Assembly: GCA_015661075.1 (NCBI GenBank)
Contig: JACVQJ010000004.1
Coordinates: forward strand, 32,194-96,193
Origin: Parachlamydiales bacterium
GTDB lineage: Bacteria > Chlamydiota > Chlamydiia > Chlamydiales > SM23-39
Direction of reading: 5' to 3'
DNA: 64,000 bases
The notes under the pieces were generated by a model that did not search any database, was not told the DNA's origin, and saw only the letters and a program-made list of their open reading frames with translations. Shown in pieces: positions 47,704-50,652 of the stretch. Positions within the stretch are counted from its first letter, which is position 1. The number at the start of each line of letters is the position of its first letter. Both the position numbers and the translations under genes were made by a program.

Positions 47704-47790
47704 GTTGTTGGGGGCTTCGCCCCTTCTGGCTTGAACGTCAACAACAACTACTACGACAACGAGAACATCGGCGTCGCGGGCTGGCGGAAA
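47704..47790 (+). ncRNA. DGR template repeat (TR)
   Basis: 87 nt, AAC-rich; matches the VR (49345-49434, minus) with substitutions only at TR adenines. Confidence 0.93.
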
Positions 47791-47805
47791 TCCTGTTAAT
47801 AATTT

Positions 47806-47835
47806 CCTCATTAGGTCTTAAAACATCTAATGAGG
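47806..47835. other. Hairpin just 3' of the TR, overlapping the avd stop
   Basis: CCTCATTAG-N12-CTAATGAGG. Confidence 0.6.
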
Positions 47836-48189
47836 GACGGACTTTATCCATCCACCAATCATTTTGCCAATTTCTTGAATATTTTTTTGAATCTCAATGT
47901 ACTGCGGATCTCCTATGATACGGGTGTCCTTGGCCAATCGGACAAGAACCTTCAGCAGATCTAGCTTGTTGCTAATAATAAATAGTGATTGAACTCGATC
48001 TTCTCCTTTCCGATGACTTGTTTCAATGAGTGCTTCTAAAAGAGCGAGCGTGGTATTCTCGCACTTTTGCCAAATCGTATAACGCCCAGATTTGGAGATT
48101 TTGGCCTGATAACTATGAAGCAGTTTGTAGAGGTCGTATATCTTATGAAAAATGGGGATATCTAAAACGCTGCGAATTTGCGTGGTCAT
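47827..48189 (-). CDS. avd: DGR accessory variability determinant Avd (four-helix bundle)
   Basis: 120 aa: DIPIFHKIYDLYK...RYTIWQKCEN...KLDLLKVLVRLAKD...EIGKMIGGWIK; lies between TR and RT. Confidence 0.9.
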   Translation of the reverse strand: MTTQIRSVLDIPIFHKIYDLYKLLHSYQAKISKSGRYTIWQKCENTTLALLEALIETSHRKGEDRVQSLFIISNKLDLLKVLVRLAKDTRIIGDPQYIEIQKNIQEIGKMIGGWIKSVPH

Positions 48190-49243
48190 GAAAGTTGCTC
48201 GATTCCTTTTTGATGAAATGACTTCATTGGAACATATTTTTCAATGCTGGAATCAGTTTAAACGAGGGAAAAGTAAAAGAAAAGATATCCAGATTTTTGA
48301 AAGGCATTTGGAGGATAATATCTTCCAGCTTCAGGAGGATTTGAGAACCTCACAATACAGCCACGCTCCATATGAACAATTCTATGTTACCGACCCGAAA
48401 CAGCGACATATTAGCAAGGCAATCGTCCGAGACAGGTTAGTTCATCAAGTGGTTTGCGATACATTGACCAAGGTTTTTGATAAAAAGTTTATATTTCACT
48501 CATTTTCCAGCCGCCTCGGGAAGGGAGCTCACATGGGTGTAGCCAACCTACGTCAAATGATTAGAAAAGTAAGCAGCAATGGGGCTCTACCATGTTTTGC
48601 ATTGAAAATGGATATTCGTAAATTTTTCGACTCAGTCCATCTTTGTACGCTGAAAGGACTGTTACGACAAGTGATCAAAGATGAAAATGCCTTGAAAATG
48701 ATCGATATAATCATCGATAGCTTTAAGGCAAATCAAGGAGAAATAGATCCGGTTGGAATCCCTCTAGGCAACGTGACATCCCAGCTATTTGCGAACGTTT
48801 ACCTTCACGAACTTGATGACTTTGTTAAACAAAACATTAAAGAAAAATATTATCTGAGATATTCCGATGACTTCATTATTTTGTCCAATAATGAAGAGTA
48901 TTTAAAACATTTGATTAGTTTGATTCGTGAATTTCTCGCAAAAAATCTACGACTCGAACTCCACCCCAAAAAAGTGTTCATCAGCAAGCTCGTGTCAGGT
49001 ATTGATTTTTTGGGATACGTCCTATTTGAAAATCACACATTAATGCGCACGAACTCCAAGCAAAGAATGAAAAGGCGGTTGAACGAGGCGTACGAGAACT
49101 ATCTCATCGGAAAAACCGACGCAACACCTATGGATCAAAAGTTACAGTCCTATTTGGGGATTTTGTCTCATGCCGATCAGCAAACCCTATCGATCGGGAT
49201 CAAAAATGCTTATTGGGTGCGAAATGGATCATTTCCCGATTGA
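48188..49243 (+). CDS. DGR reverse transcriptase
   Basis: DGR signature GIPLGNVTSQLFAN, catalytic YLRYSDD, RDRLVHQ, GIDFLGY. Confidence 0.95.
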   Translation: MKVARFLFDEMTSLEHIFQCWNQFKRGKSKRKDIQIFERHLEDNIFQLQEDLRTSQYSHAPYEQFYVTDPKQRHISKAIVRDRLVHQVVCDTLTKVFDKKFIFHSFSSRLGKGAHMGVANLRQMIRKVSSNGALPCFALKMDIRKFFDSVHLCTLKGLLRQVIKDENALKMIDIIIDSFKANQGEIDPVGIPLGNVTSQLFANVYLHELDDFVKQNIKEKYYLRYSDDFIILSNNEEYLKHLISLIREFLAKNLRLELHPKKVFISKLVSGIDFLGYVLFENHTLMRTNSKQRMKRRLNEAYENYLIGKTDATPMDQKLQSYLGILSHADQQTLSIGIKNAYWVRNGSFPD

Positions 49244-49257
49244 AGAATGAAAATTTG

Positions 49258-49272
49258 CCCGGCTTCGCCGGG
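49258..49272 (-). promoter_or_regulatory. DGR target-recognition hairpin with GAA loop
   Basis: CCCGGC-GAA-GCCGGG on the target strand, about 65 nt after the VR stop. Confidence 0.7.
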
Positions 49273-49338
49273 AAAATCCAAATTCCAAGAAAACAATGTC
49301 CTGATTACAATGGCCAAGTATCCAATGACCAATGGCCT

Positions 49339-50652
49339 TTAGAACTTCCGCCAGCCCGCGACGCCGAAGCACTCGTCGTCGTAGTAGCGGGAGTCGTCGA
49401 CGTACAAGCCAGAAGGGGCGAAGCCCCCAACAACCAAGTTGTAGCCACAAATGATTTCTTTACAACGCGTGTAAGTCCAGGGATTGTCATTGAAACATCG
49501 ATTTCCTGAACGTCGATTTTCCCAAAGAATAGCCCTGACAGCATCAAAGACCCTGGGGGCTTCGTATCCTGGAGGCAATAACCCTAACTGCTGTTTATAA
49601 GACATGTTTCTGCTTCCAGGAATCACATCGCGTGTCATGACTGCATAGCGAAATTCTTCTTCAGCAGGTATATAGTTAGCAGTTCCGAACGAATTCAATC
49701 TACATCCAGTTCCTCCAGAACTTTTATCTAGCTGATCAAGAGATTTTAATGTTAATGGGACGATAGTGCCATCGATGTCTACCTGTGGAAACAGGGGCAC
49801 GACAATGACCATATCCGAATTTATATTCCCGGGGCTAAATGGGCACGTTTCTTTAAGAAAATCAATGAGTGCTTGAGGATAAGGCGGCAGATTCATTGTT
49901 GCCGCAGCGGCCCACTCATTTTTAGAAATAAAGCACAGCATGTTTGCGATATTTACTGCAGGTATTGGCCGTTTTGATTCACAGCACTCGGTAGACAGTT
50001 TTTTCCAAGACTCTAAATGTTCAGACCCCCTTCCATCTTTACCGGAAAAGACTTCATGCGCTGTCTCGAAGATACAACGGAGATATGCTGCTCTAAGCTC
50101 AGGATGAACTATTACAGCTGTGTCATCAATACCAGATTTGATATTCGAGCTGCGGATATAACGGTGGGTCCAAAATGGGGGGGTATATTTATTATCCGAA
50201 AAAACGCTTCCTTCAAAAAGATGATCTGCCGCATTTTCGACGACATGATTAAACGCTCTATTCCATTGTTTGCAAACGCGAGAAATAGAGCTGGGTGGGA
50301 GTGATAGCCATTCGCCTTTGTCGTTGTATATTACCAGCGGAGCCCTGCTTTTTGTAAAGAGCGATGTTTTCACAGGTGCTTGCGGACCGTTCAAAAAACT
50401 CATGATGTGAGTAAGTACGTCATGAAACTCTTTTTGCTGAACAAGTGATAATCTTCGATCAGTCGTGGGAGGTTTTTGCTGCGAGGCAAAAAAATCGATA
50501 GCTAAAAAAATGGCAGCTAGAAAAATAAAAATCGGAAATAATACGACAGATACTTTTGCCGCCAATGATTTAACTGAACAGTCTGCTTTTGTTATCGAAT
50601 TCTTATAACCATCCCAATTGGTAATATGACTAGTTATGTGTACAACGCTCAT
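49339..50652 (-). CDS. DGR target: TM + split F-box-like motif + C-terminal CLec-type variable domain
   Basis: Hydrophobic VSVVLFPIFIFLAAIFLAIDFF; FHDVLTHIMSFL ... SISRVCKQWN; C-terminal LVVGGFAPSGLYV...GVAGWRKF encoded by the VR. Confidence 0.85.
   Translation of the reverse strand: MSVVHITSHITNWDGYKNSITKADCSVKSLAAKVSVVLFPIFIFLAAIFLAIDFFASQQKPPTTDRRLSLVQQKEFHDVLTHIMSFLNGPQAPVKTSLFTKSRAPLVIYNDKGEWLSLPPSSISRVCKQWNRAFNHVVENAADHLFEGSVFSDNKYTPPFWTHRYIRSSNIKSGIDDTAVIVHPELRAAYLRCIFETAHEVFSGKDGRGSEHLESWKKLSTECCESKRPIPAVNIANMLCFISKNEWAAAATMNLPPYPQALIDFLKETCPFSPGNINSDMVIVVPLFPQVDIDGTIVPLTLKSLDQLDKSSGGTGCRLNSFGTANYIPAEEEFRYAVMTRDVIPGSRNMSYKQQLGLLPPGYEAPRVFDAVRAILWENRRSGNRCFNDNPWTYTRCKEIICGYNLVVGGFAPSGLYVDDSRYYDDECFGVAGWRKF
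49345..49434 (-). repeat. DGR variable repeat (VR)
   Basis: 90 nt at the 3' end of the target gene; 10 substitutions at TR adenines plus one extra codon. Confidence 0.93.

Follow-up and report, generated by a model that had tools for sequence, protein, structure and literature searches.

Inverted avd gene and structured leader RNA in a diversity-generating retroelement of an environmental chlamydia

A stretch of 64,000 nt from a Parachlamydiales bacterium (contig JACVQJ010000004.1, positions 32,194 to 96,193, from the 45-contig draft assembly GCA_015661075.1), hereafter the window, carries a diversity-generating retroelement (DGR) in which the avd gene lies on the opposite strand between the template repeat (TR) and the gene for the reverse transcriptase (RT). 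The question raised by this locus is how such an arrangement can be accommodated: the reversed avd fills all the space between the TR and the RT gene, and its start codon overlaps that of the RT gene. Below, coordinates are positions within the window. The element is a complete DGR in the chromosome of an environmental chlamydia. With a probability of roughly 0.78, we consider that it has the architecture known as B3, with one adjacent target gene convergent with the RT gene and two remote ones, and that this layout is allowed by a structured leader RNA. The gene order is already known as B3, and the host group is new. The leader RNA, which is supported by covariation, is apparently more informative than the gene order itself and rationalises it.

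The element and its gene order

The elements of the locus are found in the places given by a first-pass annotation made from the sequence, in the order TR (plus), avd (minus), RT (plus) and target (minus). The TR (47704-47794, plus strand) forms an 85-87% inverted repeat with a variable repeat (VR; 49341-49434, minus strand) at the 3′ end of the adjacent target gene (50652..49339, minus strand, 437 amino acids), which is convergent with the RT gene; two further VRs elsewhere in the genome also match the TR. Within the repeat, 10 of the 11 substitutions in the adjacent VR are located at TR adenines, and this VR has one additional codon in an AAC tract. At their 3′ ends, the two repeats have GGCGTCGCGGGCTGGCGG in common, followed by AAATCC in the TR and AAGTTC in the VR. 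Such an end is of the type known from the initiation of mutagenic homing (IMH), namely a GC-rich IMH in the VR and a non-identical IMH* in the TR.

The avd gene (48189..47827, minus strand, 120 amino acids) matches the Pfam family bAvd (PF22296) with E=2e-18 and 67.3 bits, against a cut-off of 40; a phmmer search of Avd against the PDB gave no significant match. The RT gene (48188-49243, plus strand, 351 amino acids) matches RVT_1 with E=6.6e-22, and its best match among solved structures is the RT of the Bordetella phage, bRT (8ub7_A; E=1.2e-41, residues 5-331), with whose IGSLTSQ and YMDD motifs its own LGNVTSQ and YSDD are aligned. The adenine-specific TR/VR differences, the bRT-like RT and Avd, by which a DGR is recognised, are thus all present.

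Relatives of the RT were gathered from species genomes and metagenomes, as well as from 401 genomes of Chlamydiia, the class to which this bacterium belongs. In all sampled loci with an RT identity of at least 40% and a detectable avd, avd is on the opposite strand and abuts the RT start; all sampled loci with an identity of 38% or lower have the canonical, co-directional order avd-TR-RT. In the maximum-likelihood RT tree, the inverted-avd loci (33 of 33) fall into one clade with a support of 100/99, and this clade contains no co-directional member. It comprises 40 rows, and the seven others are those without a detectable avd, several of them on short or cut contigs. The clade splits into two branches: one (100/96) is of the type found in the candidate phyla radiation (CPR), and the other (100/97) is chlamydial and contains the window. 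These results show that the inversion of avd goes back to the common ancestor of a large RT clade uniting the CPR-type and chlamydial elements, and that the two genes of the chlamydial branch have kept their starts joined on a single CATG.

The same core order and orientation, TR, reversed avd and RT, was described for CPR elements by Wu et al. (2018; PMC5758913) as "Architecture B3", TR-(avd)-RT, which accounted for 90% of their CPR set and was nearly absent elsewhere. The window has a TR, a reverse-strand avd, an RT gene and no other accessory gene, and its RT groups with those of the B3 elements, the CPR-type B3 branch being the sister clade of its own. The first-pass annotation had rightly stated that avd is inverted relative to the elements of BPP-1 and Legionella, but its view that the layout is unusual is not tenable, since the layout is common among related DGRs and is the published B3. 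Two differences from the CPR-type elements are seen at this level. One is the host, which is a chlamydia here and not a CPR bacterium. Another is the target: the order TR (plus), avd (minus), RT (plus), target/VR (minus), with the target downstream of and convergent with RT, is found in all chlamydial loci with enough flanking sequence (L024, L025, L026, L028 and L029), while the target lies upstream of and co-directional with the TR in the CPR-type loci.

The RT family was found in 27 of the 401 sampled class genomes and in 21 of 212 genera, often as decayed fragments. Many chlamydial genomes (loci L009, L116-L118, L121, L122, L124, L125 and L128) retain RT fragments only, some with internal stops, and the avd of L028/L108 gives an aberrant reading of 143 amino acids with a frameshifted C-terminus; the DGR thus appears to decay often in chlamydial genomes. 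One genome of the same order carries another DGR lineage (L123 on G263:C32, and G263:C40), whose RT is 33-35% identical to that of the window. Since L123 has the canonical co-directional avd-RT order, both architectures occur in chlamydiae. Nothing specific was found in the literature on DGRs in Chlamydiae or on DGR leaders and covariation.

The template RNA and its leader

The best promoter-like site in our scan is a sigma-70-like sequence, TCGACA-17 nt-TATACT (47409-47437, plus strand), scoring 10 of 12 positions. In about 16 related loci, the spacing between its −35 and −10 hexamers and the leader is the same, and the template RNA is expected to start at about 47443-47446, judging from this site. 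Directly 5′ of the TR lies a structured leader of ~260 nt (47442-47703, plus strand), which stood out by its strong nucleotide conservation when the DNA upstream of the TR was aligned. Its elements, all on the plus strand, are arranged as follows. The 5′ stem-loop P1 (47445-47451 with 47487-47493) contains an inner stem and is followed by the closing strand AGUUCGUU (47494-47501) and the branched stem-loop P4 (about 47520-47561). A 13-bp long-range helix, P5 (47575-47587 with 47678-47690), 10 pairs of which show compensatory changes, encloses two stem-loops, P6 (about 47590-47617) and P7 (about 47628-47670). The closing strand pairs with GACGGACU (47836-47843, plus strand), which lies on the other side of the TR: a conserved hairpin (47806-47835, plus strand) occurs about 10 nt after the TR, and GACGGACU is directly 3′ of it. 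The 3′ arm of this hairpin is antisense to the last avd codons and the stop codon, and GACGGACU is antisense to the codons for V118, S117 and K116 of avd.

The leader was detected by nhmmer in all loci of the chlamydial clade. An alignment of 17 loci (A3) was used for folding with RNAalifold, which predicted 98 pairs, 56 of them with compensatory changes. In this fold, 93% of the cells are paired, as compared with 38-47% in the slid controls, and none of 500 shuffles equalled the real alignment on any of five measures. The closing duplex between 47494-47501 and 47836-47843 (A3 columns 54-61 and 449-456) has 8 bp and is 99% paired. It contains one double compensatory change: in L053, the avd substitution S117F (TCC to TTT) is offset by a C-to-U change in the leader. 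The hairpin is equally clear. In the window, it has −15.8 kcal/mol and z=−4.5, and none of 200 shuffles folds as well; across 20 loci, 92% of it is paired, 9 of the 12 pairs have compensatory changes, and none of 500 shuffles is as good, the covarying hairpin having 10-12 bp. The hairpin noticed in the first-pass annotation is thus real, and the 8 nt antisense to avd that follow it are those of the closing strand. Taken together, these data place the TR in the middle of a conserved plus-sense RNA of ~400 nt, which would extend from the promoter to the closing strand within avd.

The closing duplex has left its mark on the avd codons. Among 20 avd sequences, the synonymous sites are near saturation except in codons 116-120 and 8-14. 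The former patch corresponds to the closing strand and the 3′ arm of the hairpin, and only the last ~20 nt of avd are within the template RNA. K116 is encoded by AAG in 20 of 20 sequences and S117 by TCC in 16 of 17; this synonymous freeze is explained by the closing duplex.

The leader is not restricted to the chlamydial branch. A covariance model (R1) of the leader core, comprising helices P5-P7 with 131 positions and 34 pairs and matching 47565-47696 in the window, had full-length matches in 10 CPR-type B3 loci (E=3e-9 to 2e-4), all immediately 5′ of the TR; the CPR-type elements thus have a homologous structured leader at the same place. The model had no match in 16 canonical or avd-less relatives. 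The CPR-type loci were not reached by the nhmmer leader profile, and the leader was found there by the covariance model. A search of 47200-48300 against Rfam gave chance matches at the level of snoRNAs, with no family that fits, and no description of the leader was found in Rfam or the searchable literature. An initially considered pairing of GGATGGATA, upstream of the TR, with TATCCATCC inside avd was replaced by the consensus fold, where GGATGGATA is the 3′ strand of P5.

The two branches differ in what follows the post-TR hairpin. In the CPR-type loci L031, L032, L034, L035 and L036, the hairpin is GC-rich and resembles an intrinsic terminator in that a T-run comes after it. In the chlamydial branch, this T-run is absent, and the leader-pairing strand inside avd is found in its place.

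Start codons, transcripts and rival readings

The ATG of avd (48189-48187, minus strand) and that of the RT gene (48188-48190, plus strand) overlap by two bases on a shared CATG (48187-48190). The first-pass annotation had noticed this junction, and it recurs in 24 of 28 chlamydial-clade loci, with RT identities of 52-100% (two near-identical sequence pairs are included among the 28). In L054, one of the four loci without the overlap, the starts are 18 nt apart, and the palindrome AGGAGTCTCCT between them (L054:452-475) provides a Shine-Dalgarno-like AGGAG before each start, one per strand. The CPR-type B3 loci (L030-L036 and L061-L065) have at this junction, instead of CATG, a homopolymer of 9-11 G residues between or over the avd and RT starts; in several of them, no avd start codon was found upstream of the G-run.

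As there are no intergenic bases, each gene must have its 5′ untranslated region (UTR) and promoter within the other, unless the TR transcript also serves for RT. The claim that each promoter is embedded in the opposite gene therefore stands with this one exception. Candidates for such control regions were found as patches of synonymous constraint. In the RT gene, the constraint is seen in codons 2-10 and 23-32. The latter patch (48254-48283; F24 is TTT in 18 of 19, K30 is AAA in 19 of 19 and K32 is AAA in 18 of 18) is a candidate avd promoter on the minus strand, with a −10 hexamer, TAAACT (minus strand, 48260..48255), that is kept as TAAA.T and lies ~66 nt upstream of the avd ATG. The avd promoter is thus probably within RT codons 23-32, and the 5′ UTR of avd would then measure ~59 nt and be antisense to RT codons 1-20. 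In the avd gene, the constraint patch of codons 8-14, AAAAATGGGGATATCTAAAAC (48148-48168, plus strand), lies 20-40 nt upstream of the RT ATG (V8 is GTT in 15 of 17, L9 is TTA in 13 of 17 and I13 is ATT in 16 of 16), and it could belong to the 5′ UTR of RT or serve to enhance translation. For RT itself, a possible but weak −10 hexamer, TATATC, with the consensus TAnAnT, is located at 48137-48142 (plus strand) in avd codons 16-18. RT would be made either by read-through from the TR promoter or from this weak promoter inside avd. Leaderless transcription from the A residues of the CATG was also considered and rejected: positions −7 to −12 do not resemble a −10 hexamer on either strand, and the codons there are unconstrained.

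The overlap of the transcripts bears on a regulatory reading of the layout, already suggested by the first-pass annotation. According to it, the TR/RT transcript runs antisense through avd while the avd mRNA starts within RT, and a duplex or transcriptional interference sets the Avd:RT ratio or gates mutagenic homing. The geometry does force overlapping transcripts, with no intergenic space in the 24 loci that keep the CATG; in the window, no intrinsic terminator is found on the plus strand between the hairpin and RT, and the candidate avd promoter would yield the antisense UTR described above. Nevertheless, synonymous sites are near saturation throughout avd codons 20-110, which indicates that the antisense strand of the avd body holds no specific conserved RNA element. 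Moreover, the T-run after the CPR-type hairpin suggests that the TR RNA ends before avd in those loci, so that antisense read-through is not required by the layout. We therefore regard a sense-antisense switch as rather unlikely, and prefer the reading that the layout is allowed by the leader RNA.

A second rival reading concerns the post-TR hairpin, which might be a mere terminator of avd transcription on the minus strand, outside the template RNA. This would fit its overlap with the avd stop codon and the fact that the minus strand can fold as well (−12.1 kcal/mol, z=−3.6). The two strands are distinguishable, however, in their pairing across the 20 loci. Read on the plus strand, the hairpin has 40 G-U pairs, as against 4 on the minus; the paired fraction is 92% versus 77%, and the mean folding energy is −19.8 versus −14.6 kcal/mol (Wilcoxon p=2e-4), the plus strand being the more stable in 18 of the 20 loci. 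In addition, no T-run follows the hairpin on the minus strand, and the adjoining 8 nt pair with the leader on the plus strand via U-G pairs. From this asymmetry, the hairpin is taken as an element of the plus-sense TR RNA, and its interpretation as an avd terminator is improbable.

The RT gene could also start at a downstream Met (MTSLEH; in-frame ATG at 48218), in which case the starts would not be common to both genes; no Shine-Dalgarno motif precedes 48188. Against this, Met11 is replaced by Ile in six relatives, while M1-K2 and residues 7-10 are conserved, as are residues 1-10 in general; the K2 codon is AAA in 14 of 15 loci, and the alignment to bRT begins at RT residue 5, corresponding to bRT residue 6. 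The start at 48188 is favoured on these grounds, as the first-pass annotation had it, and the downstream start is very improbable. Finally, an assembly error or a recently flipped invertible segment can be set aside, because about 28 independent assemblies, with contigs of 0.64, 1.55 and 2.7 Mb among them, agree in gene order and orientation, no inverted repeats flank avd, and both reading frames are intact and fused on the CATG.

Comparison with known elements and the diversified targets

The phage BPP-1 element (mtd-avd-TR-brt) and that of the window are alike in having an RT (30-35% identical to bRT), Avd, a TR/VR pair mutated at adenines and a VR at the C-terminus of the target. Handa et al. 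(bioRxiv 10.1101/2023.10.23.563531) described two features of the BPP-1 RNA: a stem-loop that binds Avd and comes directly after the TR, and a duplex in which sequence from upstream of the TR is paired with sequence from downstream; a post-TR stem-loop, commonly of 9 bp, was present in 207 of their 278 Avd-containing DGRs. Both positions are occupied here. For the stem-loop, the candidate is the hairpin at 47806-47835, which comes right after the TR and would bind Avd; its loop has 6-10 nt, as compared with a tetraloop in BPP-1. The 8-bp closing duplex is a putative counterpart of the BPP-1 'cPRT Stop' duplex, and it may stop complementary DNA (cDNA) synthesis.

The differences lie in the arrangement. 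In the window, avd is downstream of the TR and on the opposite strand. The ~140-nt spacer between the TR and RT of BPP-1, which holds the primer, the thumb ring and the RT-binding stem-loop, has no counterpart, the space up to RT being occupied by avd; the bulk of the conserved RNA structure is located 5′ of the TR, unlike in BPP-1. These differences suggest a possible mechanism. The leader 5′ of the TR would do what the TR-RT spacer of BPP-1 does 3′ of it, and the RNA elements for holding RT-Avd and for priming and stopping would lie mostly 5′ of the TR in this lineage. No TR-RT spacer would then be needed, and the inverted avd could fill that space. The closing duplex would act as the upstream/downstream 'stop' duplex and the post-TR hairpin as the Avd-binding stem-loop, with avd expressed from its own promoter inside RT.

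In its strongest form, which we put forward tentatively and at somewhat less than even odds, this mechanism would make the B3 template RNA a circular permutation of the BPP-1 DGR RNA. The priming strand and the RT-binding elements would be in the ~260-nt leader, only the Avd-binding stem-loop would be 3′ of the TR, and the 3′ end of the RNA would lie antisense within the last avd codons, so that avd and the fold co-evolve; the S117F change in L053, matched in the leader, is one example in support of this. If true, this would explain why an inverted avd stands between the TR and RT, and it predicts that the cDNA is branched to, or primed from, a leader nucleotide.

Several points weigh against the reading that the leader allows the layout, or against parts of it. 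One chlamydial locus, L029, is without the 5′ two-thirds of the leader. A candidate duplex between the leader and the 3′ part of the TR (47564-47573 with 47787-47796), possibly the template:primer duplex, is complementary in most loci, being 79% paired against 30-53% in the slid controls, and shows almost no covariation and an invariant C-A mismatch. The candidate internal promoters of avd and RT are weak consensus matches, and promoter use, RNA ends and read-through into RT are all inferred from the sequence. The leader elements are equated with those of the BPP-1 spacer by position and topology, not by sequence homology.

The genome has one TR and three VRs: that in the window and those in two remote targets, one on contig C36 of the same assembly (G000; L129:1724-3079, plus strand) and another on contig C18 (L130:2400-3281, plus strand). 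The C36 target carries an N-terminal U-box/RING domain (U-box PF04564, 24.1 bits with a cut-off of 21.4). The adjacent target has an N-terminal transmembrane helix, and its F-box-like match (E=0.046) is under the Pfam cut-off. In the remote VRs, 12 of 13 mismatches (C36) and 10 of 17 (C18) are at TR adenines. The C18 VR may no longer be targeted, given this latter proportion and its diverged IMH. Inside the AAC-repeat tract (TR 47734-47770), each of the three VRs exceeds the TR in length (by 3, 9 and 3 nt). This is due either to a loss of AAC units from the TR after the last homing or to slippage of the RT on the repeat. Similar domains occur in the targets of related loci: a U-box/RING match above the cut-off in L024, an F-box-like match above the cut-off in L026 (25.4 versus 24.3), and F-box matches below the cut-off in L029. 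Judging from these domains, the DGR may diversify the substrate-binding end of eukaryote-like E3-ligase effectors. No literature linking DGRs with F-box or U-box proteins was found.

The window's element may be likened to the DGR of Legionella pneumophila, which is also chromosomal, resides in an intracellular bacterium of amoebae, and has multiple lipoprotein targets whose C-termini, of the C-type-lectin fold, are diversified. The targets differ, apparently being U-box or F-box-like proteins here and lipoproteins there. The Legionella DGR has the co-directional order avd-TR-RT and belongs to architecture B (Wu et al. 2018; PMC5758913).

Three other features were noted. A GC-rich hairpin, CCCGGC-TTC-GCCGGG (49258-49272), lies between the convergent RT and target stop codons and looks like a terminator on both strands. 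A plus-strand open reading frame (47351-47623, 90 amino acids) is most likely not a gene: it is without a Pfam match, coincides with the promoter and the leader, and its frame is broken by indels in the leader alignment. A second RT-like gene in the same genome (G000:C1:23455-24132, L017; a frame of 490 amino acids, with 26% identity to the RT of the DGR) probably belongs to a group II intron or encodes another non-DGR RT.

The findings bear on several aspects of DGR biology. B3 DGRs have been described as essentially restricted to the CPR, and here a sister branch of them extends across environmental chlamydiae. The leader RNA gives the B3 layout a testable mechanistic rationale. The RNA of ~400 nt, with its large structured domain on the opposite side of the TR from that in BPP-1, the only DGR RNA studied biochemically, offers a second, differently wired ribonucleoprotein for comparison, as well as an alternative scaffold for DGRec-type tools. 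The head-to-head CATG, with the embedded promoter-like patches, represents a compact and conserved case of two genes carrying each other's control region. If the nature of the targets is confirmed, this would be a DGR that diversifies the substrate-binding end of host-directed ubiquitin-ligase mimics.

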